From NCBI RefSeq assembly GCF_003334305.1, contig NZ_QOWS01000001.1: a stretch of DNA of 64,000 nt. The stretch is one strand, 5' to 3'. This DNA is from Escherichia coli. Its GTDB lineage: Bacteria; Pseudomonadota; Gammaproteobacteria; Enterobacterales; Enterobacteriaceae. Below are positions 23,331-41,193 of the stretch, piece by piece. How positions within the stretch are numbered: the first letter of the stretch is position 1; each line of letters starts with the position of its first letter. Made by a program: the position numbers and the translations under genes. The notes under the pieces are model-generated. The model had not been told where the DNA came from. It worked only from the letters and a program-made list of their open reading frames with translations, and did not search any database.

Positions 23331-25331
23331 TCATCCTTGTTGCTGAAGCATGGGGAATAATTGTTCGCAAAGTAAAACACCGTTATTCATTGCTTCTACC
23401 CGTGCCTCGCTTTCTGTATTACGAAATTGTCCCAACACATGTGCCAGCCGATAAAAACCGACCGCGGAGAGGTCATTCGCCAGCAACTCTGCCTGACTAA
23501 TAGCGCTCTGTTCCTGATAGCGCCAGCCGTTATGGAGCAGTTGAATAAGTAACGCCTGGCAGCGCATCAGCAACTGATGAGCGGTAGACGGCACAGGCAA
23601 AACGCTGGCAGAAGGTAGCGGTGCCACAGGCGCAGTTTCTGCGTCCAGCGCCCAGGCGCGGGTTTTTGTCATCATCACCCGTGGTTCCAGTGTCAATTGC
23701 CCATCAACAAAACTGACAAAGCCAGAAACCAGACTCACGGGGTCGTCTGTTTGTTGCAAAAGCGCCGCCATGCGTTCAACGGCAAAAGGAGAACAGGCAG
23801 ATGCCGGAAGGGATAACGTCAGGAGATTATCTTCACCTTCGCCGCTGATTACCTGCGCATCCAGCGTCTGGCGGCTGCTATCCCAACCGAGCGAAATACA
23901 CTCAGCGACCGGCAGAATAAATAAGTTATCGACCTGATTAAGAGGCCGTATGCAGGCGGGGGGACGCTGGCGTAAATATTCCCGCAAAGCCACAATGCCC
24001 GGCTGGCGTAACGGCGCGCTCAACATTTGCCAGGCATCAGGCGACAGCGGCACAACGCTGCTTAAGCGGTTGCGGGTAGCTAACAGCAGCTCGCCATCGG
24101 CACTGCGTTTTGCTGCTTGTGAAACAATTTGCCCACCCGCCAGTGCGCCAGCCTGAAAACTAAACAGCCGACGCGTAGCTGCCGGTGAGTTTTCCTGTTC
24201 ACTTCGCGGCCAACTGCGCGAAAGGTGCAAAATACTGCCGGTGTCGGGATCGGTAAACCAGATGCGTAAACCATAATGCTCAATATCCTGCCAGCAACGC
24301 ATACCTAAAGACACCAGCCGCAGATGATCAAGCTTTGCTTCTCCGGCAATGCCAGAGCCAACGACCGTGCGCCACGGCACAGGAGGAACTTCACCAACAC
24401 TGTCGCGCCGGGCCATCTCTTGTGCGCAATTTAATCGACTGTTTAATGCCGCAAGCTGACGTAAGCATTCTCCGGCATGATAGTGGCTGGCGCGGGCGTG
24501 GAAGGCATCAACGCTTGCCCGTAGCTGTCGTAGTGATTCACTCACCCATCGCCAGTTGCAGCGTTCCGCCGCCTGCTGCGCGCGACTGAAAGCGGCCTCG
24601 TAGTGAATAAGCGGCTGGCTGATGCCGCCCAGCCATAATGCCTGGCTTAATTGCTGAACATATTGACGACACGCGTTACCCTCGTCGTTGGCAAACGGAT
24701 CGTCAGATGATGTGACGTGTTCGCTGCGCATCTGCCAGATTAAATGAGTAAATTCCGCTTGCTGAGTTTTGGCCTCGACGAAGGCCTGCACAGCCAGTAC
24801 GACATGTTCGCAAAGTGTGCCTTCAATACAATCACAACGGGCGAAACGAATACTGCTGCGGGAATAAAAACGCACATCGCTCATCGGTAAGCGGGCAGAG
24901 GGAATTTCGCCCGGCGTACAGAACAACTCAATGGTGATGCCTTTAGCGACCAACGCCTGTGCGCGTTTGCGGGTGGCATCGGGCAGGGTAGCCAGTTCTT
25001 CCAGCCAGATTGCCGGATCCCACGCTTCTTCTTTTTCCGTAGGCTGGGCGGTAGTACAAAGTCGTTGATAACTTAACACAAGCATCACGCGATGACGGCA
25101 CATACCGCTGGCCCCGCAGCTGCACTGAGCCTCTTTCAGTGCCTGGCTGTTCGCCAGCTGGGTACGGACACCGTCACTGAAGGTGGCGATTAAAGCGCTG
25201 TTCTCATGGCTGATTTCCGGGACGTTGCCATTTTCCAGTTCCTTAAGACTGCGCTTAACAAAACCGGCATTGCTTAACGCCGTCAGGGCCTGCGGTGTCA
25301 GTTCTAATAATTCCGGACGTAGTGAATTCAT
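23331..25331 (-). CDS. yehQ: SWIM zinc-finger protein YehQ (two CxCxnCxH motifs)
   Basis: Motifs CSCGASGMCRH and CDCIEGTLCEH; start ATG (25331..25329) overlaps yehP stop (ATGA coupling); exact start uncertain. Confidence 0.75.
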   Translation of the reverse strand: MNSLRPELLELTPQALTALSNAGFVKRSLKELENGNVPEISHENSALIATFSDGVRTQLANSQALKEAQCSCGASGMCRHRVMLVLSYQRLCTTAQPTEKEEAWDPAIWLEELATLPDATRKRAQALVAKGITIELFCTPGEIPSARLPMSDVRFYSRSSIRFARCDCIEGTLCEHVVLAVQAFVEAKTQQAEFTHLIWQMRSEHVTSSDDPFANDEGNACRQYVQQLSQALWLGGISQPLIHYEAAFSRAQQAAERCNWRWVSESLRQLRASVDAFHARASHYHAGECLRQLAALNSRLNCAQEMARRDSVGEVPPVPWRTVVGSGIAGEAKLDHLRLVSLGMRCWQDIEHYGLRIWFTDPDTGSILHLSRSWPRSEQENSPAATRRLFSFQAGALAGGQIVSQAAKRSADGELLLATRNRLSSVVPLSPDAWQMLSAPLRQPGIVALREYLRQRPPACIRPLNQVDNLFILPVAECISLGWDSSRQTLDAQVISGEGEDNLLTLSLPASACSPFAVERMAALLQQTDDPVSLVSGFVSFVDGQLTLEPRVMMTKTRAWALDAETAPVAPLPSASVLPVPSTAHQLLMRCQALLIQLLHNGWRYQEQSAISQAELLANDLSAVGFYRLAHVLGQFRNTESEARVEAMNNGVLLCEQLFPMLQQQG

Positions 25332-26464
25332 GACTGAAGATTCTCCGCAAGCCATGATGCCAGCTCGCCCGGTGTCATGGCGGCTATTTGTGCGCCGACA
25401 TTTACCAGCGCCTGGGCCGTATCGTGGTCATAGCAAGGTGTTGCTGTGCTATCGAGCGCTGCCAGTCCCAGCACTTTGATGCAGCTCTGGACACACTTTT
25501 TCACCTGATGCGTCAGTAATGATGATGAACCCCCTTCGTAAAAATCGCTCACGAGGATAATGACGCTTTTCGCTGGTTGTTCAATAAGTTGCCGACCATA
25601 CTCCACGGCACTGGCGATATTGGTCCCGCCGCCCAACTGTACTTTCATTAATAACTCTACCGGATCGGCAACGTCTGCCGTGAGATCAACGACGCTTGTG
25701 TCAAACGCCACCAGATGGGTACGAATGCCGGGTAACTGCCACAAACAGGCCGCCATCACCGCAGAGTGGATCACCGAATCGACCATCGATCCGCTTTGAT
25801 CAACCAGTAAGACCAGTTGCCATTGTTCGCTTTGGCGTTTAATGCGGCTGTTAAAGCGGGGGGATTCGATATACAACTTGCCGTGTTGCGGGTGCCAGTG
25901 TTGCAGGTTGGCGCGCAGAGTACTTTTGAAATCAAAGTTTCGCGCCAGTGGAATAAATGAACGGCGACGGCGATCGCGGACACCAGAAAAAGCCTGACGA
26001 ACTTCCTTTGCCAGTCGCGCCATAATTTCTTCAACAACCTGGCGCACTATCTGGCGGGCGGCAGCCAGTACTTCGGGATTCATCAGATGTTTGGTGTGCA
26101 AAACGGCGCGTAGCAGGCTTTCCGAAGGCTGCATACGTTCCAGCACGTCGAGATTTGTCACCACATCTTCAATGCCGTAGCGCAGTACGGCATCGCTTTC
26201 CAGCCGCTCAATCACCTGTTGCGGAAACAGCGTGTGGATACTGTTGATCCACTCAGGAGTGGTGAGATTTGAGCCACCTAATCCACCAGAGCGTTCACCA
26301 CGCTGGAGCCGTTCAGGATCGCGCCCATACAGCCACTCCAGCGCGTGATCTATCTGCCGGGCGTTGTCATCCAGCCCACAAAGCGTCGTTTCTGCCGCTT
26401 CGCCAAGAATTAATCGCCAGCGTTGTAGCTCACGGGTGGTCAGAAGATCGTTCAGTTCAGACAT
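25328..26464 (-). CDS. yehP: von Willebrand factor A (VWA) domain protein YehP with MIDAS motif
   Basis: 378 aa from MSELNDLLTT; MIDAS DxSxS in LLVDQSGSMVDS; overlaps yehM 3' end by 8 nt. Confidence 0.85.
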   Translation of the reverse strand: MSELNDLLTTRELQRWRLILGEAAETTLCGLDDNARQIDHALEWLYGRDPERLQRGERSGGLGGSNLTTPEWINSIHTLFPQQVIERLESDAVLRYGIEDVVTNLDVLERMQPSESLLRAVLHTKHLMNPEVLAAARQIVRQVVEEIMARLAKEVRQAFSGVRDRRRRSFIPLARNFDFKSTLRANLQHWHPQHGKLYIESPRFNSRIKRQSEQWQLVLLVDQSGSMVDSVIHSAVMAACLWQLPGIRTHLVAFDTSVVDLTADVADPVELLMKVQLGGGTNIASAVEYGRQLIEQPAKSVIILVSDFYEGGSSSLLTHQVKKCVQSCIKVLGLAALDSTATPCYDHDTAQALVNVGAQIAAMTPGELASWLAENLQS

Positions 26465-27098
26465 GGAAAACTCCCCAGTGTTGCAGCGATGCCAGTGCCT
26501 GCTGTTCGAGTTGTTGATGATGTGCAATGGCTTGCGGTGGACAATGCAACGGCATTTGCAGTGCCGAAACGGGAAGTTGCGCCAGTTGATAATGCTCAAG
26601 CACCTGATGCGCCAGCGTTCCGCGTTCTCGTGGCGGTAGCCAGGCCATCGCCGCGCGTAAATCGGGCAGGGCATTGATAAAATCGGCATCACTTAGTTGA
26701 TTTAAATGACTGCTGAAACCGGCGATAAATGTCGGCTGACAGGCCAGTTGATGACGGGCTAATGCCAGCAAACCTTGCAGCGCCTCGCCGGATTGTGCCG
26801 GGGATAACTGCGCCAGCATCGTCAGCGCCGCTTCGGCACTGGCGTTGGGATGTTCCAGACGCATTAGTGCGCCAAGAACCGCGCCGCGATCCAGCGCCGG
26901 GGCATGAATCGCCTGACTGCGTCGCTCCAGTAAGGCTACCGCCGCAGAAAGCGAAACGCCGGATAAATTAACGCCGCTATGTAGATCGCGCAGAATATGG
27001 CAAAGCGCTTGCCAGCTATGCAGGTGAGCGTGAAACTCCTTTTCATCCGGTCTGCCGTTAGATTCACACAGCCACAGCGTGCGATCGATAGCGCGCAT
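26457..27098 (-). CDS. yehM: C-terminal ~213-aa segment of YehM, in a different frame from the N-terminal segment (apparent frameshift)
   Basis: ORF MRAIDRTLWLCESNGRPDEK... continues to a stop overlapping the yehP start; frame differs by one nucleotide from 26936..28735. Confidence 0.55.
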   Translation of the reverse strand: MRAIDRTLWLCESNGRPDEKEFHAHLHSWQALCHILRDLHSGVNLSGVSLSAAVALLERRSQAIHAPALDRGAVLGALMRLEHPNASAEAALTMLAQLSPAQSGEALQGLLALARHQLACQPTFIAGFSSHLNQLSDADFINALPDLRAAMAWLPPRERGTLAHQVLEHYQLAQLPVSALQMPLHCPPQAIAHHQQLEQQALASLQHWGVFHV

Positions 27099-28735
27099 AA
27101 CGTCGTTTGTAATATCTGCGCGCCTTGCATACCGCTAATTTCATCCAGCCGCCATAAGGCATATAGCACTTCCAGCGCCTGGCCCATTTCGGCAAATTGA
27201 TTTTCCTGGGCGATTAATAATGTGAGTTGCTCCAGTAATTGTTGACTGAAGGACGCCAGACCCGCTAACGCCGCCTGGCTAAGACATGTGGTGATACTGC
27301 CGATTCCACCCGCGTCCAGCATATCGGCTTCTAATTTATGGCGTGCGGCTTCCTGGAGTGTTGCACCAAAGCAGGCGGCCTCAATCAATGCCGCATGCTG
27401 GCTAAGCGGGCGGGTTAATTTCCAGCGTTCTTCACCGTTGCCTGCAAGTGTCAGTGTGCTTCCCTGCTGGCGTACAATCCCTGGGATCTCCAGTATTGCC
27501 AGCCGATGTAACACCTGACTTTGCGCTAGTCCATTGGGGTTAAAGCGATTTAAGGTAAGCTCCGCCGGAAGAGAGATTGCGGTACGTTCCAGTTCGCAGG
27601 TGACATCTTTTGGCAGAGGCGGTTGTGGCGTAGAAGGGGCAAGTTTACCGAATCCGTCACCCGCTAATGTGTCTATCAACGTTAGCAGAATCGGATCGGT
27701 ATCGGGATGAATAACGCCGCGATAGCTCCACGGCAACGGCGCATTCAGGGCTTCTTTAATCAGCGAGCCTGCTATGGCATCCAGCCAGTCAGTGCGTAAC
27801 GGTAGTGTATGACCGCGCAACTGTGCCAGCGCCATCGCATGCAGATGAGCGGCAGCCATATCCGCGGTCGAAGCAGGCAACTTGTGCTGGCGCAAACGGG
27901 TGAGAACCGTTTTTAGCAGTTGTTCTCCCGCCTGCTGTAAGCCCCACTGCCAGCACCAGTTTTGCCAGACCGGGGCAGGCATTCCGGAAAGGTATCCTGC
28001 CAGCACATCAAGGCGCTTTTCACTGTAGGGGGTGAGATAACAACCTGTAACGGCATCTGCCAGCGACGGCAATTCTGGCGTGTTAATTTCCTGCGGGCAT
28101 TCGCGCCACATTTTTGCCAGTACCGGAGCGTGCCAGCCACCGCAGACAACTAACACGTCGCCATTATTTTGCTGCATCGCCCATCCAATCCAGCGGGCCA
28201 TAAAGGCTTCGCGCAGACGATTGAGAGCATCTCCGGGGGAGTCGCCCCGCAGTTGGGCAAAATAGTGCGCCAGTGCAGAGGGTAATGCAGTTTGCTGGCT
28301 TTCATCTTCGAACAAGTGATCCCACAGGGTGTCGCTGTTATCCATGCGGGTGGCACGCAGCAGCAAGGCCTGGCTTTCCTCTTGCGTATCAGGCGAATCG
28401 TCCACTTCTTCACTCTGCGCCCAGCAAGGCAAATCGATGAAGTAAGTTTGTGCCTGAATACGACGTGCGGCTTGTAGCGCCTGCCACTCCGGCGAAAATT
28501 CAGCAAATGGCGTCCAGGCACCACGCCCGGGGGCTGCACCGTCCTGATACTGGCAATAACTGTAAATAGCTACCGGAAGCTGGTGGGCTAAAAACAGTTC
28601 GTCTACCCGGTCATTAAAATCAGCCGGGCCTTCAATCAATACGTATCGTGGCCGCTGGCTTTCGATTAACGATTTCACCAGCCGGGCGCAGGCCGGACTA
28701 TGATGCCGGATGCCGACAATTAACGGCTCGCTCAT
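26936..28735 (-). CDS. yehM: N-terminal ~599-aa segment of YehM (unknown-function partner of the MoxR/VWA pair)
   Basis: Start MSEPLIVGIRHH overlaps yehL 3' end by 12 nt; the last ~50 codons before the stop at 26936 look out of frame. Confidence 0.6.
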   Translation of the reverse strand: MSEPLIVGIRHHSPACARLVKSLIESQRPRYVLIEGPADFNDRVDELFLAHQLPVAIYSYCQYQDGAAPGRGAWTPFAEFSPEWQALQAARRIQAQTYFIDLPCWAQSEEVDDSPDTQEESQALLLRATRMDNSDTLWDHLFEDESQQTALPSALAHYFAQLRGDSPGDALNRLREAFMARWIGWAMQQNNGDVLVVCGGWHAPVLAKMWRECPQEINTPELPSLADAVTGCYLTPYSEKRLDVLAGYLSGMPAPVWQNWCWQWGLQQAGEQLLKTVLTRLRQHKLPASTADMAAAHLHAMALAQLRGHTLPLRTDWLDAIAGSLIKEALNAPLPWSYRGVIHPDTDPILLTLIDTLAGDGFGKLAPSTPQPPLPKDVTCELERTAISLPAELTLNRFNPNGLAQSQVLHRLAILEIPGIVRQQGSTLTLAGNGEERWKLTRPLSQHAALIEAACFGATLQEAARHKLEADMLDAGGIGSITTCLSQAALAGLASFSQQLLEQLTLLIAQENQFAEMGQALEVLYALWRLDEISGMQGAQILQTTLCALSIARCGCVNLTADRMKRSFTLTCIAGKRFAIFCAIYIAALIYPAFRFLRR

Positions 28736-28745
28736 GCATCTTTCC

Positions 28746-29834
28746 TCACGGCAGGCGGTGGCGGGCTTGATAATAAGCCTGCCAGTGAGCTTCTTTATGT
28801 GTGGCGACTCGTTGTTCGAAGTAACGGCGCAGACGAGCGCGATCTTCTTCGTTATCTTTGACGATGGTTCCGGCAATGCAGTCCACCAGGTCGGCTGGCT
28901 CACCTGCGCGATTCGCTAAAAACCAGGCGCGGACGCCTACGGCGTGGGCCACGTTCACGGCTTCAGCGGTGGACATAATCGCTGTTAGTGTATCCATTGA
29001 CGTTTTCTTTTCGCCGTTGGCACGCAGATCGCGGAAGGTGCGGACCAGTAACTCCAGTACCGCGTCAGGCACTTTATGCGGAATACCGCTATGGGCCAGC
29101 AAACGCGCCGAAGCACTGGCGACAAGCTCCAGCTCCTGGGCGAAATCCATAATCGGAAAGACAGTTTCAAAATCGAAGCGACGCTTTAGCGCAGCACTCA
29201 TTTCATTGACGCCGCGATCTCGGGTATTGGCAGTGGCAATAATATTAAAGCCTTCTCGCGCATAGAGCTGACTGGCTTCACCAGTGAGTTCCGGCACCGT
29301 CATCACCCTGTCAGAAAGCATACCTAACAGACAGTCTTGCACTTCCAGCGGTGTACGCGTTATCTCTTCAAAACGGACGATTTTGCCGTCGCGCATTCCC
29401 TGGTAAAGCGGGGCAGGGACCAGCGCTTCCGTTGATGGACCATGATTGATAAGCAGGGCGTAGTTCCAGCCGTACTTGATTTGATCTTCGGTAGTAGATG
29501 CGCCGCCCTGGATGGTTAACCCGGCATCGCCGCTAATAGCGGTTGCCAGTAATTCAGACAGGAGAGATTTTGCGGTGCCAGGTTCCCCCACCAACATCAA
29601 ACCGCGCCCGGTGGCAAGAGTGACTAACATGCGTTCGACAGCGGAGGGACTAATCACCACTTTACGGCTAATATTTTGCGCGCTATCGCCAAGGATAAAA
29701 GCACGGGCCGCAGGCAAACTTAACTGCCAACCGGGCGGGCAAGGAGCGTTATCATTTTGTTTTAATTTTGCCAGTTCATCGGCGTATAACACAGCAGCAG
29801 GCGGACGCTGCAGATGATTATTCTGCGGTGACAT
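28746..29834 (-). CDS. yehL: MoxR-type AAA+ ATPase YehL
   Basis: Walker A GEPGTAKS, Walker B-like IVRFEEITR; 362 aa from MSPQNNHLQRPP. Confidence 0.88.
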   Translation of the reverse strand: MSPQNNHLQRPPAAVLYADELAKLKQNDNAPCPPGWQLSLPAARAFILGDSAQNISRKVVISPSAVERMLVTLATGRGLMLVGEPGTAKSLLSELLATAISGDAGLTIQGGASTTEDQIKYGWNYALLINHGPSTEALVPAPLYQGMRDGKIVRFEEITRTPLEVQDCLLGMLSDRVMTVPELTGEASQLYAREGFNIIATANTRDRGVNEMSAALKRRFDFETVFPIMDFAQELELVASASARLLAHSGIPHKVPDAVLELLVRTFRDLRANGEKKTSMDTLTAIMSTAEAVNVAHAVGVRAWFLANRAGEPADLVDCIAGTIVKDNEEDRARLRRYFEQRVATHKEAHWQAYYQARHRLP

Positions 29835-29941: not shown

Positions 29942-30028
29942 AAATAAAAAAACCTGCTGGTGAGGCAGGTTCTTTTATTTACTATTTTCAGGCCTAACAC
30001 CACAGCCTGTGCAACATCGTGTTCCAAC
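29942..30028 (-). ncRNA. orzP: Orz-like antisense sRNA (type I antitoxin), copy proximal to yehL; approximate ends
   Basis: Minus-strand sigma70 promoter (-35 ttgcaa 30058..30063, -10 tataat = plus attata 30035..30040); intrinsic terminator 29951..29971 plus U-run; 5' end complementary to zor leader at 30175..30194. Confidence 0.55.
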
Positions 30029-30551: not shown

Positions 30552-30636
30552 AAATAAAAAAACCTGCTGGTGAGGCAGGTTCTTTTATTTACTACAGTGA
30601 CGCTAACTTGCTGATTGTGCAACATTTCGTACCAAC
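30552..30636 (-). ncRNA. orzO: Orz-like antisense sRNA (type I antitoxin), copy proximal to yehK; approximate ends
   Basis: Same architecture as copy 1: -35 ttgcaa 30666..30671, minus -10 at 30643..30648, terminator 30561..30581; 5' end complementary to leader 30785..30802. Confidence 0.55.
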
Positions 30637-31073: not shown

Positions 31074-31391
31074 TTATTCTATTTCTTGGTTGAATATATT
31101 CTGTAGTTCACGATTAAAAATTGCTATTACAGTTTCAGGTGATTCACCTCGTAATTTCCGCTCATCAATACACTCATCTCTTATATAAATCAACGCATCA
31201 TTTATTAGCGGGTCAGCATCTTCTCGATCACGTTGATGAAATGTTGGATGTAGCCGGAATCGCTCCAGTCGATAGACGGAACCTGTAAATAATTCAGAGC
31301 ATTTATGGATCTCAAGTCTGAAGGAAAACGGATCTTCAGGTACAGGGACCTCATAATCGTAAATAGCAACTAGCTCTTTTTGCACGATCAT
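31074..31391 (-). CDS. yehK: Uncharacterised small protein YehK (105 aa)
   Basis: ORF MIVQKELVAIYDYEVPVPEDPFSFRLEIHK...; recognised by sequence and position downstream of yehI. Confidence 0.75.
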   Translation of the reverse strand: MIVQKELVAIYDYEVPVPEDPFSFRLEIHKCSELFTGSVYRLERFRLHPTFHQRDREDADPLINDALIYIRDECIDERKLRGESPETVIAIFNRELQNIFNQEIE

Positions 31392-31451: not shown

Positions 31452-34400
31452 TTAATGGAAAATGACGTCAGGTGCGCTTAACGCCTCACTCAAATCAAAC
31501 ACATCAAGTTCGGCAAAAGTGACGGATTTATTGTCACGGTACACTCGAAGAGAACGGAAGCTCATTAGCGCTTTGCTATCAACATTGTAGTGGTTAAAAC
31601 CGGGTGAAAACTTAAGGACCAGCCGGTACTCGCCCAGGTCATAGACAAATGCATCCTCATAGCCTGACTCCCAGCCTTTGTATCGCATTCCCATAAGCTG
31701 CCCAACGGTAGCGGATTTACCTTCCCAGCGAGTCAGGCTGTTACTGGTTGACTCATCAGGTGTGAGCAGCACCGTGCACCGCGCCAACTGGCGAAAAGGC
31801 GGCATAATTTCGTAATCGGCAAAAAGCTGTGCAAATTCACTGCGCATTTCTACTGTCATTTCTAACGGGTGGGCAATGCCAATCAGAGCGTCCGCAGGCA
31901 GGTCAATTGGCTCATCTTGCGCATTGCAGAACTCCCCCTCTGCGGCCACACGAAAGGCGTTGAGTAAACAACGCGGTTCATTTGCCGGATAAGCCCCCCA
32001 TATTAATCGCTGGGTAACCAGACGGGTAAAGGGATGATTAACAAACAGAGAATGAAAATCTGCCAGCGACCAGCGTCGGGTGGTACGTAGGGCCGTTTCA
32101 AGACGCGGGAGCAGGTTTTTGCTCACCTGAGTGGCATCTTTTTTTAGCCCTTTTAGTCGGGCCAATGCCTCGGGCGCTTTCAGTTGATCGTCATCGGCGC
32201 GCAACCGGGGAACGCTTTTCTGGCGAACGTTTTGCTGATCAAAGATAACCGGGTTGAGGTTTTCATCGAAGCGAACGGTAAACTGCCGGGGACCAAAATC
32301 AAAACTCAACGCCTGCGGATCATCAAGGCCCAGGGTTGGGACTAATCTGTCCGCTAGCTCTTCCTGGCTTAGCCCGCGATTTTCTGCGACCACCTGAAGA
32401 AATTCCGCCGCGTTATCACGTAAGGGGCGGGATTTCGCCCGTTGCGATATATGATGCAGCTGTATCAGCGCCATATCATTATTCATCAGGGTAAGGATGT
32501 TCAGGCCACTGACAGCACGGGCAGATTTGCCTTCTTGTGGCCAGCCGAGGATCTGTGTCGTTAGATCCCGTGCCGTGCTTTCGTCACCAAAGAGACTTAA
32601 CGCCAGAAATGCCCAGTTGTCTTTTACGGGGGCACCAGCTTGTTGCCACGCAGTGAAGAGATCCCAGGCAAAAGCTGCCAGCGTTTGTGGCTGGCAGAAC
32701 GTTTTCAGTTGTTCCAGCCCGCTATAAAAACGTCCCCCCTGGGTAAAGCGCAGCATTTCGCCGATAATTTCCAGAGCGTCATCGGTAACAGGTTGATTAT
32801 TAGTGATAAGGCGCGGCCTGGACCACATTTGCGGATGCCAGAAATCAGGGGCTTTTGGAATGCGTGCCGGGTAAATCTCTATTGGACTCTGTTTAAGTAA
32901 TTGTTCCAGGGCAGGCCATAGATCTGTACGCTGCCAACGATTGGCTACAGTTTGTAGCAATTCGCCATGCCCATGTTCGTAAAGTAAACGCAGGGCAAGT
33001 AATGCAGCTTCGCTTTTATCGCTAGATTTGGTGAAGATAAGAGGGATAAGTGCAGTAGCCGTATGTTCCGGCCATTGTAAAATCCACTGGCGAGCCAGAT
33101 TACGCTGGCCCGCAAAACGGTGCCAGACGCGGGCAATGGGCAGGGCCAGTTCTGTTGCGCCGAAATTTAAAATTAACGGAAATGTTTCTTTTGGACGATG
33201 TGAAAAAGCCAACATCAGACCTGGTAGCGCATCCAACCCGAGGATACTGAGAAAATAGTCCTCACCCGCGAACAGATGTTTTTTCTCATTGATACGCAGC
33301 CAGAAGGTCAAAGCCATCTCACGCGGCAACTGTGCCAATAAATACAGGTTCCAGACACTCTTTTCCGGACGATAACGTGAGTAGTTGTCATTTTCCCATA
33401 TGTTAATTAACGCTTCTATGTGACCGCTGCGGAGCGCCTGTTCTGCTAATTGTGCTTCCGGGGAGTTCCAGCCATTCAGGATCTCTTCAACCCGCCCCTG
33501 GTAGTAATGCCACTGAACAATGAGTGAATTGCGTGCAGCATCCAGTTTTCCGGGGAGTATATAATTCAAAAACAGCCATACATCATCCCCAAAACCCAGT
33601 TCCTGTAATACAACTCGCCCACTTTTTTGTTCCATGCGTTCCGCAAGAGATTCCGTGCTGAAATAACGGGCAGGCTCAGTGGCGGCAAGCCTCTCTCGTT
33701 CGCCAGGTTGCCAGTAAACTTGCGGCGTTAATTCGAGCGGTGCCAAATCAAGACGTGGAGCTGTCATTTTTTTCTTACTACGCCACGGTGGTGAAACGAG
33801 GATTTCAGGCAGATTGCTGTTATCGGTACTATCAATAACCGGTTTGGGCGGTGCCGATAAATAACTATTCAGCACTGCCCTGGCTTGAGTACTTAACCAC
33901 TGCATCATCTCTTCTGCCAGTTGTGGCTGCGATGCCATCAGCGTTTGTAACAGCGTACGCCAGTATTCATCGCGTGCTTTTTGCTGTGCAGGCAGCTTTT
34001 TGTCTTCGATGATTGGATAACCTGGGCGGGCTGGTGGTTCTGTTAACGCCAGCAGTTCTGCCAGTGCGGCGAGCGTCGCATGGGGGAAGTTTTTATGGTA
34101 TTTAGCTACACGTTGCAGGCTGGGTTTGTTTTTATCAGCCACCAGTAGCAAGGTGCGGATGACTTGCGGATGGTTAATTTGTACCAGCAGACTGCCGCAA
34201 TCTTCTTTATGGGCATACATCGCGAGGCGCGGAATGGCTGCCAGTCCTTGTTCGCGCAAAAGGGCGGCGCAGGCCGCGTAGCCGAAGTGGTTTTCATGCG
34301 ACATGTAGCTGGCTTCTCGATCGCTAAATATATCCTGGCTCCAGTAGTGCTCGAGTTTTCTCACCGCTGTGGGGTCATTAGCAACAACTTTTAACCACTC

Positions 34401-35084
34401 CTTAGAATGAAAATGAGTTCGCGGGCATTCAAGGCCTACCAACTCATTGGCTATTTCTGGTTTTTCCGGGAGGATCAGCGCAATAAAAGGGCGGCGAACT
34501 TTGGTTATTCCTGGTAGTGCGGCAATGAGTTTGTCGGCGCAACGCTGCCAGCAGCTTTCCTCTGCCAGAGAGAGATGCTTACGCAGTCGGAGATCGAATT
34601 CGTTATAGGTTTCTGAGCGATAACCATAGCCATAATCCTCGTCCTGATACTGCAATGTCACTACCAGAGGATCACTCTCATAACACCGCGCAATAAACTG
34701 GCGTGCAATCACCACCTCAGTCGCATATTCCAGCCCCTCTTGTTGGACGATTTCGTCGAGCAACTGTTGGCTGTCATTTTGCGCGATACAGGCTAGCGCC
34801 GCCATTGTCCGGGCCGGGATTGAGGGTTTGTGTTCGCCGATCAAGTTGATGGCCTGCGTGATGGCGGACTGCCACTCCAGTGAAAAATTTTCATAACGCC
34901 AGACAATGTTTTTTTTCTTCTCAGCTTTTTGTAGCAATTCATCACCCAGTGTCTGAATGATGCTTTCAGTGATAACAGGCACCGGTTCGCCCGGCCATTT
35001 GCGATGACTGAGTGGTGTTTTGCCTTTTTTATATTTCAGTTCCAGTTGGGCGTTATCCGCCAGCCACGGTAATTCCTTGTCCAT
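31452..35084 (-). CDS. yehI: Large DUF4132-family protein YehI (1210 aa), paralog of MolR
   Basis: Shares long collinear blocks with the upstream ORF (e.g. RLRKHLSLAEES.WQ.CA.KLIAA, LFADYE..PPFRQL). Confidence 0.85.
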   Translation of the reverse strand: MDKELPWLADNAQLELKYKKGKTPLSHRKWPGEPVPVITESIIQTLGDELLQKAEKKKNIVWRYENFSLEWQSAITQAINLIGEHKPSIPARTMAALACIAQNDSQQLLDEIVQQEGLEYATEVVIARQFIARCYESDPLVVTLQYQDEDYGYGYRSETYNEFDLRLRKHLSLAEESCWQRCADKLIAALPGITKVRRPFIALILPEKPEIANELVGLECPRTHFHSKEWLKVVANDPTAVRKLEHYWSQDIFSDREASYMSHENHFGYAACAALLREQGLAAIPRLAMYAHKEDCGSLLVQINHPQVIRTLLLVADKNKPSLQRVAKYHKNFPHATLAALAELLALTEPPARPGYPIIEDKKLPAQQKARDEYWRTLLQTLMASQPQLAEEMMQWLSTQARAVLNSYLSAPPKPVIDSTDNSNLPEILVSPPWRSKKKMTAPRLDLAPLELTPQVYWQPGERERLAATEPARYFSTESLAERMEQKSGRVVLQELGFGDDVWLFLNYILPGKLDAARNSLIVQWHYYQGRVEEILNGWNSPEAQLAEQALRSGHIEALINIWENDNYSRYRPEKSVWNLYLLAQLPREMALTFWLRINEKKHLFAGEDYFLSILGLDALPGLMLAFSHRPKETFPLILNFGATELALPIARVWHRFAGQRNLARQWILQWPEHTATALIPLIFTKSSDKSEAALLALRLLYEHGHGELLQTVANRWQRTDLWPALEQLLKQSPIEIYPARIPKAPDFWHPQMWSRPRLITNNQPVTDDALEIIGEMLRFTQGGRFYSGLEQLKTFCQPQTLAAFAWDLFTAWQQAGAPVKDNWAFLALSLFGDESTARDLTTQILGWPQEGKSARAVSGLNILTLMNNDMALIQLHHISQRAKSRPLRDNAAEFLQVVAENRGLSQEELADRLVPTLGLDDPQALSFDFGPRQFTVRFDENLNPVIFDQQNVRQKSVPRLRADDDQLKAPEALARLKGLKKDATQVSKNLLPRLETALRTTRRWSLADFHSLFVNHPFTRLVTQRLIWGAYPANEPRCLLNAFRVAAEGEFCNAQDEPIDLPADALIGIAHPLEMTVEMRSEFAQLFADYEIMPPFRQLARCTVLLTPDESTSNSLTRWEGKSATVGQLMGMRYKGWESGYEDAFVYDLGEYRLVLKFSPGFNHYNVDSKALMSFRSLRVYRDNKSVTFAELDVFDLSEALSAPDVIFH

Positions 35085-35093
35085 GCTCTTTCC

Positions 35094-38000
35094 TTATTCA
35101 AACAGGGCTTCAATATCGTTAATTAGCTCGCTGGCGGTGATGGCATCGAGTACGGAGAACTGCGCTTCCTGTGTTGAATTACTCCCCCAGCCATAGCTTT
35201 CCGCTTTGCCTTCCCATAACCACAGCTTGCTTAAGAGCTGCTCAGCGCTAAGTTCGGCTGGTGACATACCCACCGCAAAACCTTCGTCGATTTCCATGAT
35301 TAACGACCAGCGACCCAAAGGTTTGATCATCCATCCGATCCAGCCTCCATCCTGTGGTTCGCCCTTTATCCAGCCTTTATTCGCCAGCCCCATGACCCGA
35401 CCACTCGGGCATTTTCTGCCTGCCCAGCGGGTCAGTTCACTGGCATTGTGCTCGGCTTCTGTCAGGGCGTAGCTGTTACGGTCGAGCTGGCGGAACGGTG
35501 GTAGCAGTTCGTAGTCGGCAAAAAGCTGACCAAAGGCGGCAGCATCCGTTGGTGATATTTCCAGAACGTGAGGAGTGCCGATAGAGATATCGCCTTCCGG
35601 CAGGGTGAAAAGATCATCGTCAGCGGTGCTGTAGCTGTTATCTTCTGCTACGCGAAAGCAAGCCAGTAGCTGGTTTTCGGCGCTATAAACGCCCCAAATC
35701 AGACGGCGGGTTAAGTGGCGAACCAGCGGATGCTCAACCAGGAAGAGCTGGAAGTTTTCCGGCGACCAGCGGCGGCGCAGGCACATGGCGGATTCCAGCC
35801 TTGCTACCTGCTGGGCGGCGACGGTACGCGCATCTTTTTTCAGCAATTTGTAGCGGTTAACCGCATCGTTCGACCGCGATTCATCATCGCTTTTGTTCGG
35901 TTTGGGCAGGTCTTTCAGGCGGCTGCCGGAAACATCACGCACAAACGGTTTTAAGGTTTCATCAAAGCTGACGGTGAACTGCCGTGGGCCAAAATCCAGC
36001 AGCAGCGAACCGTTATCATCCAGACCGAGATCCGGTGCTAACCGATCTTCAAGCTCCGCCACCGTGAGTTCGCGGCTCTCGGCAATGTCGGCAATTTTTT
36101 CTTTTGCCCGCTCCTGTAATGCTTTGAATTTCAGTTTCTGGGCGATGCCGTTAAGCTGCATAAGGGCGATATCACTACCGATAGCAGCGAGAATATCCAA
36201 CCCAACGGTGGCGCGTTTATGCTGGGATTCACCAGGCCAGGCGCGTATTAATGGCGTCAGTTTGCGGGCGGTGTCATCGTTACCGAGAACGCCTAACGCA
36301 GTGAACGCCCAACTCTCTTTCGACGGCGCGCCAGCGGTCTGCCAGGCGGTAAACAGATCCCAGGCAAATCCCGCCAGTGAGTCGGCGGAACAGACGTCTT
36401 TCACCTGCAATAATCCCGGATACAGAGCCTCTTCCTGAGGGAAGCGGAGCATTTCACCGAGGTGGAGGAGGGCGCTATCTGGCAGTGATTGGGCATTTGC
36501 TTTTAATACCGGGCGCGTCCAGAGCGATGGCTGATAAAAGGCCGGAAGAGTGGGGATTTTTGTCGGGTGATTATCTAAGGGATCGAGCGCAAGCAGAGCG
36601 TTCACCGCATCGGTTACTTCCGGCTGGTTATAACGTCGGGCGATTTCTTGCAGTAATGGCTGATGACCGTTTTCGGTAAGCATACGCAAGGCAGCGCGGG
36701 CGTTATCCTGTGCTTCACCGGCTTTGCCGAGCGCCGCAGGCAGCAGGCCGGTAAGGGCATGTTCCGGGTATTTCAACAGCCAGCTACGGGCGTTTTCGCG
36801 TAGCGTTTTCAGTTTGTTGAAGGCACGGGCGACGGCAGGAGCCAGCTCACTCGCTGCGAAGTAATTCGTGATGGGCAAGGCTTCTTGTGGATAGCGTGCA
36901 AGTGAGTTTACTAACCCAGGTAACCCTTTGAGTCCAAAATGTAACATGGCGTATTCGGTATCGGTATGTGGAGATAGGGTAAGGGCATTCCATGCTTTTA
37001 CTGCTTTCTCCAGCGGCAATGTTGTCAAAATCCCCAACTGCCAATAATGCCCGGTAGGTGAATGAAACACCTTAAATTCACTTAGTAAGGTTGAATAATC
37101 TTCATTTAGCCATGCCTCAACTACCGCTTCGGGAGCTTTAATATATGTACCAGCGATCCGTCGTTGAAAACCCATCCTTGCCAACAGGTTGGTAGTACTT
37201 TCTTCATGGCTAACCGTGATGTGTTTTGAATACCAGATATATTTCGCCAAAAGTTGATTACTGATTTCTTCTGTCAGATAACAGATTGGCTCAATGCCTA
37301 ATGGCGCTAAATCCAGCACCGGAATCGGCGATTTTTTCTTTTTCGAAAGCCAGGGAGGGGAGACTACTACGGCTGGCAGTAGATCGGCGCTGGCATGGTT
37401 TGAGGGCTGTGTCAGTTGTTGCTGGCATGATTTCAGTACGGCAACTGCGGGTGTCGAGAGCCAGGGAATGACCTGTTCTGCCAGTGCTGGTTGTGAGATA
37501 AGCATTGTCATTAGCATAATGCGCCAACTGTTCTCTTCTTTTTGCCCAAGAAGTTCCGTCAGTGCCGCCATTGCTGCATGTGGGAACGCAGCGCAGGCTT
37601 TCGTCATCCGATCGTGACAGCGTTTAGTATGCCCGGCTACACGTATAAGCAGTGTTAATGCGAACGGATGATTGATATGACGCAACACATCGGCGCAGTA
37701 GTCACTTGCGGCATAGGGAGCAAATCGGGGCAGGGCTGCAACACCTTGCTCCTGTAATACGGTGGCTGACCATATCGCACCACAATAGTAATCATCAAAA
37801 ATGGCATATGGCTCGTGATATTTTTCTAATGAGGCAAGAATGTGCTCATCAGTCGCCACTATTTTTAACCACTCAAGCGAGGGTAATTTTTTTTGCCCCA
37901 GTAGACGCTGGGCAATTTCATGTGCAATTTCTGGTTTTTCGGGTAATAACAAAGCAATTAATGGTTGCCGCCATTCTGGAATATGTGGAATTGCGGCAAT

Positions 38001-38888
38001 AAGTTTTTGTGCACATTTTTGCCAGAGAGACTCTTCCGCCAGTGATAAATGTTTACGTAGGCGTAATTCAAATCTGGAATATTGCTCCAAGTAGTCAGGT
38101 GCAATGCCAGACGGCAGAATAATAATGACATTATTCGCATAATCCCATTTAATATCAATCTGTTGAAGGTGTATTATTACATCAGTAGCATATTCCAGAC
38201 CGCCTTCCTGGACGATCTGATCCATAACATCCTCACGCACTTTATATCTTGTGCATTTCATTTCAAGTGCCGTGAGTACAGCCATTACTGGTGATGGTAG
38301 CTGTGTTGTTTTCAGGCCGTCGATCTGACTGATCGCCTGGGCGACGGTGTTTTGCCATTCTAAAGAACAGGCGCTGAAGTCAAATGTGGCTGTTTTATTA
38401 TCCCGTTGCGACACACTACAGGCTAAGCGACGTAATTGGGTCAATTTGTCTGCTTGCTGAACAGGAACTCCGGGAAAGCGGCGATGACTTAACGTGGTGT
38501 GTACAACTTCGGGCGGAAAAACGACAGCAATATCTTTCGCCAGCCACGGTAAAACAGCATCTGTATTTTTGTCAGGCGCACGGGTTTCTGCTACGAAAGA
38601 GGGTTGTTCCTGAATAATGGTGGATAAGTCCGCTACCTTGAGAGAGCCCGTTACCGTTTGGGAAGGTTGCAAAGAATTATCCTTCGCTTGCTCCACATAC
38701 CCCTTCTTCACCTTCTCCGCAATCAGCTTAAGCTCCGCTTTTGCCGCTGCCGCAGCATCTGAAAAACTTTTTATCTGGCTTTGCCCTTTGGTGCCAACTT
38801 TTCCCCAACTGATATGCAACTCGTTTCCCTGTTGCTCAACTGCCCAGAATTTATGTGATTTTTCGTCCTGATAGATAAAGTGTCTCAT
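35094..38888 (-). CDS. molR: Intact MolR-family protein (1264 aa) with N-terminal WGR domain and C-terminal DUF4132 region
   Basis: N-terminus MRHFIYQDEKSHKFWAVEQQGNELHISWGKVGTKGQ is a WGR domain; uninterrupted here; 9-bp gap to yehI. Confidence 0.8.
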   Translation of the reverse strand: MRHFIYQDEKSHKFWAVEQQGNELHISWGKVGTKGQSQIKSFSDAAAAAKAELKLIAEKVKKGYVEQAKDNSLQPSQTVTGSLKVADLSTIIQEQPSFVAETRAPDKNTDAVLPWLAKDIAVVFPPEVVHTTLSHRRFPGVPVQQADKLTQLRRLACSVSQRDNKTATFDFSACSLEWQNTVAQAISQIDGLKTTQLPSPVMAVLTALEMKCTRYKVREDVMDQIVQEGGLEYATDVIIHLQQIDIKWDYANNVIIILPSGIAPDYLEQYSRFELRLRKHLSLAEESLWQKCAQKLIAAIPHIPEWRQPLIALLLPEKPEIAHEIAQRLLGQKKLPSLEWLKIVATDEHILASLEKYHEPYAIFDDYYCGAIWSATVLQEQGVAALPRFAPYAASDYCADVLRHINHPFALTLLIRVAGHTKRCHDRMTKACAAFPHAAMAALTELLGQKEENSWRIMLMTMLISQPALAEQVIPWLSTPAVAVLKSCQQQLTQPSNHASADLLPAVVVSPPWLSKKKKSPIPVLDLAPLGIEPICYLTEEISNQLLAKYIWYSKHITVSHEESTTNLLARMGFQRRIAGTYIKAPEAVVEAWLNEDYSTLLSEFKVFHSPTGHYWQLGILTTLPLEKAVKAWNALTLSPHTDTEYAMLHFGLKGLPGLVNSLARYPQEALPITNYFAASELAPAVARAFNKLKTLRENARSWLLKYPEHALTGLLPAALGKAGEAQDNARAALRMLTENGHQPLLQEIARRYNQPEVTDAVNALLALDPLDNHPTKIPTLPAFYQPSLWTRPVLKANAQSLPDSALLHLGEMLRFPQEEALYPGLLQVKDVCSADSLAGFAWDLFTAWQTAGAPSKESWAFTALGVLGNDDTARKLTPLIRAWPGESQHKRATVGLDILAAIGSDIALMQLNGIAQKLKFKALQERAKEKIADIAESRELTVAELEDRLAPDLGLDDNGSLLLDFGPRQFTVSFDETLKPFVRDVSGSRLKDLPKPNKSDDESRSNDAVNRYKLLKKDARTVAAQQVARLESAMCLRRRWSPENFQLFLVEHPLVRHLTRRLIWGVYSAENQLLACFRVAEDNSYSTADDDLFTLPEGDISIGTPHVLEISPTDAAAFGQLFADYELLPPFRQLDRNSYALTEAEHNASELTRWAGRKCPSGRVMGLANKGWIKGEPQDGGWIGWMIKPLGRWSLIMEIDEGFAVGMSPAELSAEQLLSKLWLWEGKAESYGWGSNSTQEAQFSVLDAITASELINDIEALFE

Positions 38889-38995
38889 TCTGCATCCCTG
38901 TAATTTTATCCAGTTGAATGCAGATGCTACCAGTATTTATGCGGGTTAGAGAGAGACAAAATCGCAAGAAAACAACTTTAGGAATTTATAAAGAA

Positions 38996-39022
38996 AAGGC
39001 GCTGTCGATGCAGCGCCTTAAA
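38996..39022 (-). terminator. Intrinsic terminator downstream of metG
   Basis: aaaggcgctgtcgatgcagcgcctt hairpin just 3' of the metG stop. Confidence 0.6.
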
Positions 39023-39028
39023 GGGGGA

Positions 39029-41062
39029 TTATTTCACCTGATGGCCTGGTTTAGCACCAGCATCCGGGCTTAACAGGAAGATATCTTTCCCGCCAGGACC
39101 AGCAGCCATTACCATGCCTTCGGAGATACCAAAGCGCATTTTACGCGGTGCCAGGTTGGCCACCATAATGGTGTGACGCCCGATCAGTGCCTGCGGATCC
39201 GGGTAGGCAGAACGAATACCGGAGAAGACATTGCGTTTTTCACCGCCGAGATCCAGTGTCAGGCGCAGCAGTTTGTCAGAACCTTCAACAAACTCTGCGT
39301 TTTCGATCAGCGCCACGCGCAGGTCAACTTTTGCGAAGTCGTCAAAGGTGATGGTTTCCTGAATCGGATCATCTGCCAGTGGGCCAGTAACTGGCGCGGC
39401 AGCTGCTTTCACTTCTTCTTTAGACGCTTCCACCAGTGCTTCAACCTGCTTCATATCGATGCGGTTATACAGCGCTTTGAACGGATTCACTTTGTGGCCC
39501 AGCAGCGGTTGCTGGATACCATCCCAGGTCAGTTCTGTATTGAGGAATGCTTCTGCGCGCTCGGTCAGTTTCGGCAGTACCGGCTTCAGGTAAGTCATCA
39601 GCACGCGGAACAGGTTTATGCCCATTGAGCAAATTGCCTGCAGGTCGGCATCGCGGCCTTCCTGTTTTGCCACCACCCACGGAGCCTGCTCGTCGACATA
39701 GCGGTTAGCCAGATCAGCCAGCGCCATGATTTCGCGCACTGCTTTACCAAATTCGCGGCTTTCCCACGCTTCACCAATCACTTCAGCGGCATCAGTGAAG
39801 GTTTTGTACAACTGCGGGTCAGCCAATTCGCTTGCCAGCACGCCGTCAAAACGCTTGTTGATAAAGCCCGCATTACGAGAGGCCAGGTTAACCACTTTGT
39901 TCACGATATCGGCATTCACACGCTGAACGAAATCCTCCAGGTTGAGATCGATATCATCAATGCGCGAAGAGAGTTTCGCAGTGTAGTAGTAACGCAGGCT
40001 GTCAGCGTCAAAATGATTCAGCCAGGTGCTGGCTTTAATAAAGGTGCCGCGAGACTTGGACATCTTTGCGCCGTTCACCGTCACATAGCCATGAACAAAC
40101 AGGTTGGTCGGCTTGCGGAAGTTGCTGCCTTCCAGCATGGCAGGCCAGAACAGGCTGTGGAAGTAAACAATATCTTTACCGATGAAGTGGTACAGCTCGG
40201 CGGTGGAGTCTTTCTTCCAGTATTCATCGAAGCTTACGCTGTCGCCGCGCTTGTCGCACAGATTCTTGAAAGAACCCATGTAGCCAATCGGTGCGTCCAG
40301 CCAGACGTAGAAATATTTGCCCGGCGCGTTCGGAATTTCAAAACCAAAGTATGGCGCGTCGCGGGAGATATCCCACTGTTGCAGGCCGGATTCAAACCAC
40401 TCCTGCATTTTATTTGCCACCTGCTCCTGCAACGCACCGCTGCGGGTCCATGCCTGCAACATTTCGCTGAAAGAGGGCAGATCAAAGAAGAAGTGTTCAG
40501 AATCACGCATTACCGGCGTAGCGCCAGAAACCACCGATTTCGGCTCGATCAATTCAGTCGGGCTGTAGGTCGCGCCGCAGACTTCGCAGTTATCGCCGTA
40601 TTGATCCGGGGATTTACATTTCGGGCAGGTGCCTTTCACAAAACGGTCCGGCAGGAACATGCCTTTTTCCGGATCGTACAGCTGAGAGATGGTGCGGTTT
40701 TTAATAAAACCGTTCTCTTTCAGGCGAGAGTAGATAAGTTCTGACAACTGGCGGTTCTCTTCGCTGTGCGTCGAGTGATAGTTGTCATAGCTGATGTTAA
40801 AGCCTGCGAAATCAGTCTGATGCTCCTGACTCATTTCGCCAATCATCTGCTCCGGGGTGATACCAAGCTGCTGAGCTTTCAGCATGATCGGTGTACCGTG
40901 GGCATCGTCGGCGCAGATGAAGTTGACCTCGTGGCCGCGCATTCGCTGGTAACGGACCCAGACATCAGCCTGGATGTGCTCCAGCATATGGCCGAGGTGG
41001 ATTGAGCCGTTAGCGTACGGCAGTGCGCACGTCACCAGAATTTTCTTCGCGACTTGAGTCAT
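39029..41062 (-). CDS. metG: Methionyl-tRNA synthetase
   Basis: HIGH motif (ANGSIHLGH), KMSKS motif, Zn knuckles CPKC/CEVC; 677 aa; recognised. Confidence 0.95.
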
Positions 41063-41193
41063 AGTAGGCATTACTTCTTAATAGTGAAAAGGGGTTAGAT
41101 AGTACCAAATGGGAAAATGTTAAGTAAGTACTTCTCTATATTCTTCAGGTAAACTATCAGCTGATGGTTTATCTATACAAAAAAGGAGTCGGG

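Follow-up and report, generated by a model that had tools for sequence, protein, structure and literature searches.

The stretch of DNA analysed here, 64,000 nucleotides of contig NZ_QOWS01000001.1 (assembly GCF_003334305.1; hereafter the window), is part of the Escherichia coli chromosome and lies in the orientation opposite to the K-12 map. It carries two adjacent giant genes, molR and yehI, whose products share the domain DUF4132, together with the neighbouring genes yehL, yehM, yehP and yehQ (yehLMPQ), in the order metG-molR-yehI-yehK-spacer-yehL-yehM-yehP-yehQ. The features of the region are:

39029-41071, minus strand: metG, the first gene in this order
38889..39028, minus strand: metG-molR intergenic region with the metG terminator hairpin (~38994-39017) and the molR promoter; sequence read directly
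38896..38915, minus strand: candidate LexA (SOS) box AACTGGATAAAATTACAGGG, its end 8 nt upstream of the molR ATG
35094..38888, minus strand: molR (yehH), 1264 aa, ATG start, uninterrupted; WGR, alpha-solenoid and DUF4132
38682..38873, minus strand: WGR domain of MolR, residues 6-69 (Pfam PF05406)
36039..38681, minus strand: linker and mostly helical alpha-solenoid of MolR, residues ~70-950 (AlphaFold2 model)
35097..36791, minus strand: conserved C-terminal block of MolR, residues ~700-1264, containing the Pfam match to DUF4132 at 35370-35927
31452..35084, minus strand: yehI, 1210 aa, ATG start, uninterrupted; DUF4132 at ~31671-32225, without WGR
31074..31391, minus strand: yehK, an open reading frame (ORF) of 105 aa
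29912..30915, minus strand: tandem 608-bp repeat between yehK and yehL, an insertion of the zor-orz type I toxin-antitoxin kind
29946-30021 and 30556-30629, minus strand: two OrzO/OrzP antitoxin small RNAs (sRNAs; Rfam RF02083, 99.9 and 88.8 bits)
28746..29834, minus strand: yehL, MoxR-type AAA+ ATPase of the YehL subfamily
26457..28735, minus strand: yehM, DUF5682; two overlapping ORFs, 1-bp deletion at ~27093
25328..26464, minus strand: yehP, CoxE-like VWA protein with the DxSxS motif of a metal-ion-dependent adhesion site (MIDAS)
23331..25331, minus strand: yehQ, two SWIM zinc fingers (CxCx5CxH)

Domain content and predicted structure of MolR and YehI

An initial annotation of the window, made from its sequence, had described molR and yehI as two paralogous frames of 1264 and 1210 residues with collinear conserved blocks, separated by 9 bp, of which only molR encodes a WGR domain. 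The lengths and the gap (35085-35093) agree exactly with the ORF coordinates, and BLASTP and Pfam bear out the remainder. MolR and YehI align over 1186 collinear residues with 37% identity and 53% positives (E = 0), both of the quoted blocks, RLRKHLSLAEES... and LFADYE..PPFRQL, are present in this alignment, and MolR is the longer protein at the N-terminus by ~109 residues. Pfam places WGR (PF05406) at residues 6-69 of MolR (E 4.9e-18) and finds no match to it in YehI. DUF4132 (PF13569) is matched in both, in MolR at residues 988-1173 over model positions 1-179 of 179 (E 2.2e-49) and in YehI with E 8.1e-46. The MolR WGR is similar to that of the PDB entry 2ra8 (E 1.4e-16), and the family profile matches the WGR of PARP3 (E 4e-4). 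Searches of PDB sequences with the single proteins and with the family profile recovered WGR only, apart from artificial alpha-repeat proteins, matched weakly, and one other match above E 0.1.

Catalytic or regulatory domains were sought in several ways. A helix-turn-helix (HTH) or other regulator domain has no significant Pfam match in MolR or YehI; no ADP-ribosyltransferase (ART/PARP) domain is found in MolR by Pfam, and its model contains no such fold; and neither protein has a nuclease, NADase, pore or protease effector detectable by Pfam, NCBIfam or fold searches. The NCBIfam scan gave WGR-level and generic AAA/VWA matches only, all of them under the family cut-offs.

The AlphaFold2 model of MolR (residues 65-1264, 89 aligned sequences) has a mean predicted local distance difference test score (pLDDT) of 89.8 and a predicted template-modelling score (pTM) of 0.84. 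In this model a low-confidence linker of ~40 residues follows the WGR domain and leads into a long, mostly helical alpha-solenoid, which ends in a beta-rich/alpha+beta C-terminus. Foldseek with the whole model against the PDB retrieved generic HEAT/ARM solenoids only, none with E <= 1e-3; fold searches gave no enzyme-like match for the alpha+beta C-terminus, and a search of AFDB50 returned family members only. The predicted structure shows MolR as a protein of scaffold type, with a large alpha-solenoid and a conserved C-terminus that lacks an enzyme-like fold.

Both genes are already catalogued and their products are already named in RefSeq. In E. coli A7 molR is a 'DUF4132 domain-containing protein' and yehI a 'DUF4132 domain-containing protein YehI', and clusters of the full-length protein (1262-1264 aa), with tens of thousands of members, carry the name 'WGR and DUF4132 domain-containing protein'.

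Linkage of DUF4132 genes with yehLMPQ across bacteria

A search of 1.84 billion representative proteins yielded 2582 clusters at E <= 1e-30, and an N-terminal WGR domain is present in 99 of 115 full-length representatives of the family. Taking one genome per species, we obtained 69 DUF4132 loci and counted their neighbours within 10 kb. The initial annotation had named co-occurrence with yehLMPQ as a check on its interpretation, and the outcome is strongly positive, with 42-46 of the 69 loci linked in conserved order and strand: YehL is found in 46, YehM in 45, YehP in 42 and YehQ in 44, and most E-values fall between ~1e-50 and 1e-250. The linked genes lie on the same strand, and one to six full-length DUF4132 genes usually stand directly upstream of yehL-yehM-yehP-yehQ, often overlapping; exceptions are a few loci that have them downstream or between yehM and yehP. 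This arrangement extends over Gamma-, Beta- and Alphaproteobacteria, Myxococcota, Acidobacteriota and Actinomycetota. Where the four core genes are absent, the locus is on a short contig, is an additional orphan copy or array in Massilia, or belongs to one of a few Myxococcales. Beyond these four, the flanks of the 69 loci have no conserved family; they otherwise show lineage-specific synteny and spurious ORFs in high-GC sequence, and two contigs with distant homologues have no informative neighbours.

In Massilia (loci L020, L032, L035, L036, L042 and L054) many WGR-DUF4132 genes and fragments stand in tandem and solitary copies occur elsewhere, and the number of DUF4132 genes is far above the single yehLMPQ set per genome.

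The same association is seen on plasmids. Among 72,556 plasmid records, 31 contain DUF4132 or the MolR C-terminus, 39 contain YehM and 24 contain both, so that 24 of the 31 DUF4132 records have the partner; the two stand side by side wherever coordinates or annotation were compared. An Iodobacter plasmid (L081, 22918-26575) bears the whole module beside a type I restriction-modification system and insertion sequence (IS) elements; on a Rhodococcus plasmid (L084, 15726-22454) a DUF4132 gene that is both orphan and split lies in the vicinity of a Wadjet system and of a zeta toxin. The records with YehM only contain a sister operon, SWIM-DUF5691-AAA-DUF5682-VWA, without a DUF4132 gene, for instance on plasmids of Deinococcus (L085, 4759-12805), Rhizobium (L086, 5518-12451) and Methylosinus (L087, 5058-11217; here no VWA gene is annotated after DUF5682). 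The sister module unites the same four core families as yehLMPQ in one operon; the SWIM gene comes first, and a DUF5691 protein of ~470 aa stands in for the giant DUF4132 protein. DUF5691 has no homology to the MolR family that hhalign could detect (probability 2%). At least two different partners thus exist for the core of four proteins.

These contexts bear on the name of molR. Databases list 'MolR family transcriptional regulator' and 'molybdate metabolism regulator', and WGR has been called the DNA-binding domain of MolR-like transcription factors (PMC7824862), all of which would make MolR a DNA-binding transcription factor that regulates molybdate metabolism. We give this almost no credence. 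Pfam finds neither an HTH nor any other transcription-factor domain, a solenoid protein of 1264 aa linked to an ATPase/VWA operon is atypical for a regulator, none of the 69 loci is linked to mod or moa genes, and in Deinococcus the molybdenum genes did not change along with the DUF4132 gene (PMC8533742). With no regulator domain, a solenoid scaffold as the predicted model and no supporting gene context, it was reasonable of the initial annotation to reject the molybdate-regulator name.

The YehLMPQ core

The four core proteins look active by the conservation of their motifs. YehL matches AAA_5 (Pfam, E 2.6e-34), its Walker A and B motifs (GEPGTAKS, VRFEE) are conserved in 98-100% of 46 homologues, and the median identity to the E. 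coli protein is 74%. YehP matches VWA_CoxE (E 2.1e-72), with the MIDAS motif D222-x-S-x-S conserved in 98% of 43 homologues and a median identity of 66%. YehQ has two SWIM matches (E 0.0011 and 0.21), and its two CxCx5CxH patterns are conserved in 90-98% of 42 homologues at a median identity of 34%. YehM is a DUF5682 protein (E 3e-98 on the K-12 copy) with a median identity of 47% across loci. Pfam, a sequence-level search, finds no effector domain in YehM or YehQ. YehL has given its name to one of the seven MoxR subfamilies, and MoxR AAA+ proteins generally pair with VWA partners as remodelling chaperones (PMC3893208). A weak Pfam match relates YehL also to the MoxR domain of MoxR-vWA-beta-propeller systems (bpMoxR, E 0.0021), and weak NCBIfam matches to GvpN and MadB-type ATPases.

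Such pairs raise the question of whether the module is a chaperone for a metal centre or for complex assembly, in which YehL and YehP would act like CoxD/CoxE, NorQ/NorD or CbbQ/CbbO, with MolR and YehI as scaffold. The strong VWA_CoxE match of YehP, the GvpN and MadB-type matches of YehL and the role of MoxR/VWA pairs as known maturation factors (PMC3893208) are in its favour. It could also account for the old molybdate phenotype, as the passage in PMC7824862 that cites Lee et al. 1990 traces the name molR to a molybdate-utilisation mutant. However, the 69 loci share no candidate client enzyme next to the module, one would not expect a dedicated assembly factor to have a WGR head or hypervariable tandem paralogues, and K-12, the source of the phenotype, has a broken molR and a broken yehQ. 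We consider the chance that this explanation is right to be slim.

Allelic variation of molR within E. coli

DNA of molR is matched in 5420 of 5426 complete E. coli genomes, in 4011 of them with a coverage of >=80%, and the copy in the window is 100% identical to that of E. coli A7. An intact molR is the norm in E. coli rather than the exception. K-12 carries a pseudogene, as the initial annotation had stated: RefSeq flags its molR as 'frameshifted; internal stop', and by alignment codon 275 is a stop and one G has been inserted after nt 2845, two lesions that explain the three K-12 fragments. The frame in the window is uninterrupted, as stated there, but to single it out as an allele that could be functional is not warranted, as intactness is the norm and its partner yehM is frameshifted.

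Several strains (S14, EBJ003, O157:H7 and Ecol_743) have three tandem giant genes after metG, here called c1, c2 and yehI. The product of c1 has WGR and DUF4132 and is 44% identical to MolR; c2 is the orthologue of molR. The same series (WGR, WGR, no WGR) occurs in Klebsiella oxytoca, from which we conclude that three copies are the older state for the group. The body of c1, a third paralogue, is present in 1644 of the 5426 complete E. coli genomes (~30%). A comparison of positions 38700-38888 of the window with the starts of c1 and c2 (loci L003, L004 and L005) reveals a hybrid gene, in which the promoter, the LexA box and the first codons (MRHFIYQ) come from c1 and the body from c2. Judged from these alignments, the molR of the window is a fusion of two ancestral copies, which implies a deletion by recombination within the well-conserved WGR-coding segment.

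The genes of the region differ in their variability. Amino-acid identity between the proteins of the window and those of the comparison strains is as follows:

MetG: 99.0-99.4%
YehL: 98.9-99.7%
YehP: 97.6-98.9%
YehQ: 96.3-96.8%
YehI: 91.8-96.4%
MolR: 75-92%

The variation of MolR is unevenly distributed. Residues 1-700 (36790-38888) are 43-76% identical to the S14 allele, with a saturated rate of synonymous substitution (dS), and in residues 700-1264 the identity between E. coli strains is 94-100%; metG, which flanks the variable half, is 99% identical. This pattern indicates an exchange of segments, either from allelic lineages of great age or by import from other species. The ratio of nonsynonymous to synonymous substitution rates (dN/dS) is 0.2-0.25 for the giant genes and 0.05-0.08 for yehL, yehP and yehQ. 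Selection therefore still acts on the giant genes. MolR consists of a variable half joined to a constant half, and its alleles are old, recombining and under purifying selection, positive selection not being proven.

Decay of the cluster in E. coli

The yehM of the window has lost 1 bp at ~27093, a G in a GCGCG context, as located by comparison with K-12 and M18. The frameshift, at about codon 548 of 759, splits the gene. RefSeq annotates the same defect as 'frameshifted' in A7; the deletion may be genuine or may have arisen in the assembly. Provided that the components act jointly, this frameshift probably leaves the window strain without an active machine. In a sample of nine E. coli genomes, with A7 and the window counted as one, six have one or more core genes disrupted, at a site that differs from genome to genome:

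K-12: molR and yehQ disrupted
A7 and the window: yehM disrupted
O157:H7: c1, c2 and yehM disrupted
O111: molR and yehQ disrupted
EBJ003: deletion fusing yehI to yehM
Ecol_743: yehP disrupted

It is possible that the whole E. coli cluster is a decaying relic without current function, whose intact frames have simply not yet been hit. Disruption at different sites in six of nine genomes would agree with this, as would the zor-orz element inserted between yehK and yehL and the resistance transposon inserted in the region in the ST131 L1a lineage (PMC9334617). Yet dN/dS is far below neutrality in yehL, yehP and yehQ as well as in the giant genes, every core gene is intact in three of the nine genomes (M18, S14 and A33), and the module is conserved across phyla. 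We consider a relic very unlikely.

Regulation and the SOS link

The candidate LexA box upstream of molR is the sole CTG-N10-CAG site in the window with an AT-rich spacer. The first copy in K-12, O157, S14 and EBJ003 is preceded by the identical box, which five E. coli lineages including the window thus share; the box departs from the consensus in 7 of 20 positions, with CTGG in place of CTGT. That molR is a target of the SOS response and of BglJ-RcsB is already published: PMC6590174 includes the gene in the LexA regulon as one whose SOS box is known, and experiments in PMC3950696 located its promoter, its transcription start and the site at which BglJ-RcsB activates it. In the whole window CTG-N10-CAG occurs 32 times as against 13.9 expected from shuffles, none of which reached 32. 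This excess is probably an effect of codon usage, because the spacers of the other sites are GC-rich and lie inside genes.

We scanned the sequences upstream of 50 loci with SOS motifs of the gamma/beta, alpha, actinobacterial, Xanthomonadales and RDRM patterns. A LexA-type box was found in Escherichia (including Escherichia sp.) and Klebsiella only; the other 47 loci scanned have none, and one of them (L045) contains an isolated match to the alpha-type pattern. Across the loci scanned, the SOS link is local to Escherichia and Klebsiella and not a property of the family. In these two genera the DUF4132 genes are probably damage-induced, because they have a promoter of their own with a predicted LexA box and a BglJ-RcsB site.

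The regulation invites the idea of a DNA-damage factor, in which the WGR domain would recognise nicks or breaks as in PARP1-3, the solenoid would serve as scaffold for factors of repair or protein removal, and the MoxR/VWA motor would clear stalled nucleoprotein complexes. The membership of molR in the LexA regulon (PMC6590174), with the box present and conserved, speaks for it, and so does the strong induction of the Deinococcus WGR protein DR2173 and DUF4132 protein DRA0166 upon depletion of DdrO, a repressor of the DNA-damage response (PMC8533742). MolR has the WGR domain in common with PARP1-3 (by Pfam, and by the match of the family profile to the PARP3 WGR). Unlike them, it has no ADP-ribosyltransferase or other catalytic domain, and its WGR is followed by a solenoid and DUF4132. 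The restriction of the box to Escherichia and Klebsiella, with none in the 47 other scanned loci, its seven deviations from the consensus (CTGG, not CTGT), the dispensability of the system, which is often broken in E. coli, and the fact that yehLMPQ is not reported as SOS-regulated all argue against a general role in damage. A DNA-damage factor appears quite unlikely to us.

Relation to conflict systems

The initial annotation had compared the giant paralogue pair next to an ATPase/VWA operon with sensor/effector arrangements of conflict systems. In its explicit form, MolR, YehI and the extra copies would diversify to sense phage proteins or invading nucleic acid, and YehLMPQ would transduce or execute a response switched on along with SOS upon DNA damage or the awakening of prophages. 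Several properties of the family are in line with this: the tandem expansion (two to six full-length copies per locus, plus fragments), the divergent mosaic N-terminal halves with old allelic lineages within one species, the polymorphism in copy number (the third copy in 1644 of 5426 genomes), the scattered, independent pseudogenes, and a patchy occurrence that, given very similar YehL proteins in phyla far apart, suggests horizontal transfer. On plasmids, two of the contexts adjoin a type I restriction-modification system or Wadjet, and the weak bpMoxR match of YehL (E 0.0021) points in the same direction.

Against these stand the searches for defence features proper. MolR, YehI, YehK, YehL, YehM (both fragments), YehP and YehQ have no match in PADLOC-DB v2 at E <= 0.01, nor have the proteins of the sister module. 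The family has no copy in 50,697 phage records, and the 31 of 72,556 plasmid records that contain it are for the most part megaplasmids. Neither a nuclease, NADase or pore nor any other effector fold was detected. The E. coli locus has a fixed position in the core genome, between metG and btsSR, in essentially all genomes. Among the largest flanking ORFs of 17 diverse loci (30 ORFs), 21 have a family match, none of them to defence and most to housekeeping genes such as metG, topA, sohB, dnaG, rpoD, kefC and gspF. A dN/dS of 0.2-0.25 with saturated dS fits old recombining alleles under purifying selection. Given the missing PADLOC matches and phage copies, the few plasmid copies, the lack of an effector fold and the housekeeping neighbours, the analogy to conflict systems gains no direct support, and an immune function appears unlikely.

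MoxR-vWA ternary conflict systems, described by the Aravind group, have three elements in common with the yeh module, namely a MoxR ATPase, a vWA protein and a variable partner rich in repeats. Unlike those systems, the yeh module is devoid of a beta-propeller and of effector-associated or toxin domains, and its context is mostly housekeeping. One might nevertheless think of a new class of nucleic-acid surveillance without a classical effector, in which the WGR-solenoid-DUF4132 proteins would be interchangeable, diversifying sensors on a MoxR/VWA/DUF5682/SWIM engine, with the DUF5691 operon as a sister type. This we regard as doubtful; if true, such a system would be SOS-induced in enterobacteria and would act against phages, plasmids or other invading DNA.

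A possible MoxR/VWA machine with exchangeable adaptors

The reading that we prefer, and which in our judgement stands an even chance of being correct, is that MolR and YehI are nucleic-acid-tethered accessory or adaptor subunits of a YehLMPQ remodelling machine of the MoxR/VWA kind. MolR and YehI are likely its variable adaptors because DUF4132 genes are nearly always found with yehLMPQ in many bacterial groups. The data above show the domain content, the paralogy, the linkage of the genes, the pattern of conservation and the class of fold. The docking, the nucleic-acid binding, the remodelling activity and the biological role that we infer for them would fit together as follows. The core would consist of YehL as MoxR-type AAA+ motor, YehP as VWA protein with MIDAS, YehM with DUF5682 and YehQ with its double SWIM. 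Each giant protein would contribute a variable N-terminal alpha-solenoid and a conserved C-terminal block of ~560 aa including DUF4132, and MolR in addition a putative nucleic-acid-binding WGR head, placed ahead of the solenoid on a flexible linker. First, the conserved C-terminus would dock on YehLMPQ, plausibly via the MIDAS of YehP by analogy with MoxR/VWA pairs. Second, the WGR head and the variable solenoid would choose a nucleic-acid-associated client or site. Third, ATP hydrolysis by YehL would remodel the client or the adaptor itself.

The known MoxR/VWA pairs (RavA-ViaA, CbbQ-CbbO, NorQ-NorD and CoxD-CoxE) share with the yeh module an AAA_5 motor near a MIDAS VWA protein in one operon. 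Unlike them, the yeh operon adds a DUF5682 protein, a double-SWIM protein and one to six giant WGR-solenoid-DUF4132 proteins, and no client enzyme is encoded nearby. A further likeness, which we take as a lead only and which is drawn from a comparison of domains, is to midasin (Rea1), a eukaryotic AAA_5 ring with a MIDAS domain that pulls assembly factors off pre-ribosomes. AAA_5 and MIDAS, here split between YehL and YehP, and large helical scaffolds are found in both; unlike YehL and YehP, midasin unites six AAA modules in one polypeptide.

Several observations weigh against the adaptor model. Docking through MIDAS is an analogy only, and nucleic-acid binding by WGR is putative in this family. 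Orphan DUF4132 genes or arrays without yehLMPQ within 10 kb exist in Massilia, some Myxococcales and Rhodococcus. In E. coli, molR/yehI and yehLMPQ are separate transcription units under different control: yehL and yehM are up in hns/stpA mutants (PMC3686432), and the molR promoter is not repressed by H-NS (PMC3950696). The system is moreover dispensable and may be decaying in E. coli, as six of nine genomes have a broken core gene.

In the literature searched we found no study dedicated to the MolR/YehI/yehLMPQ module, none on DUF5682 and only passing mentions of DUF4132; searches on yehM, yehP and yehQ, and on MoxR together with defence, turned up nothing relevant. With ~15 kb and seven genes in nearly every strain, the cluster is one of the larger functional blanks of the E. 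coli genome. The view of the cluster as one module, its swappable partner, the split into variable and constant halves and the enterobacterial SOS link offer an experimental handle. K-12 is the wrong strain for such a study because molR and yehQ are broken, and the window strain is also unsuitable because of its broken yehM; M18, S14 and A33 are natural isolates with all core genes.

Accessory elements and a reported mutant

Two elements of the E. coli region appear to be additions. yehK was found in Escherichia only, in one of the 69 DUF4132 loci, and is frameshifted in S14, A33 and Ecol_743 (three of the nine sampled genomes); it is probably outside the conserved module. The spacer of ~1.2 kb between yehK and yehL is the 608-bp tandem duplication with its two OrzO/OrzP sRNAs, which corresponds to the zorO-orzO/zorP-orzP type I toxin-antitoxin locus described in PMC2887945. 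It does not occur in K-12, and its insertion interrupts an operon that is contiguous in other bacteria.

A deletion of the K-12 fragment molR_1 slows growth only in combination with a deletion of lepA (PMC4245954). We did not adopt a role in translation on this ground, as a polar effect on the adjacent metG is at least as likely.

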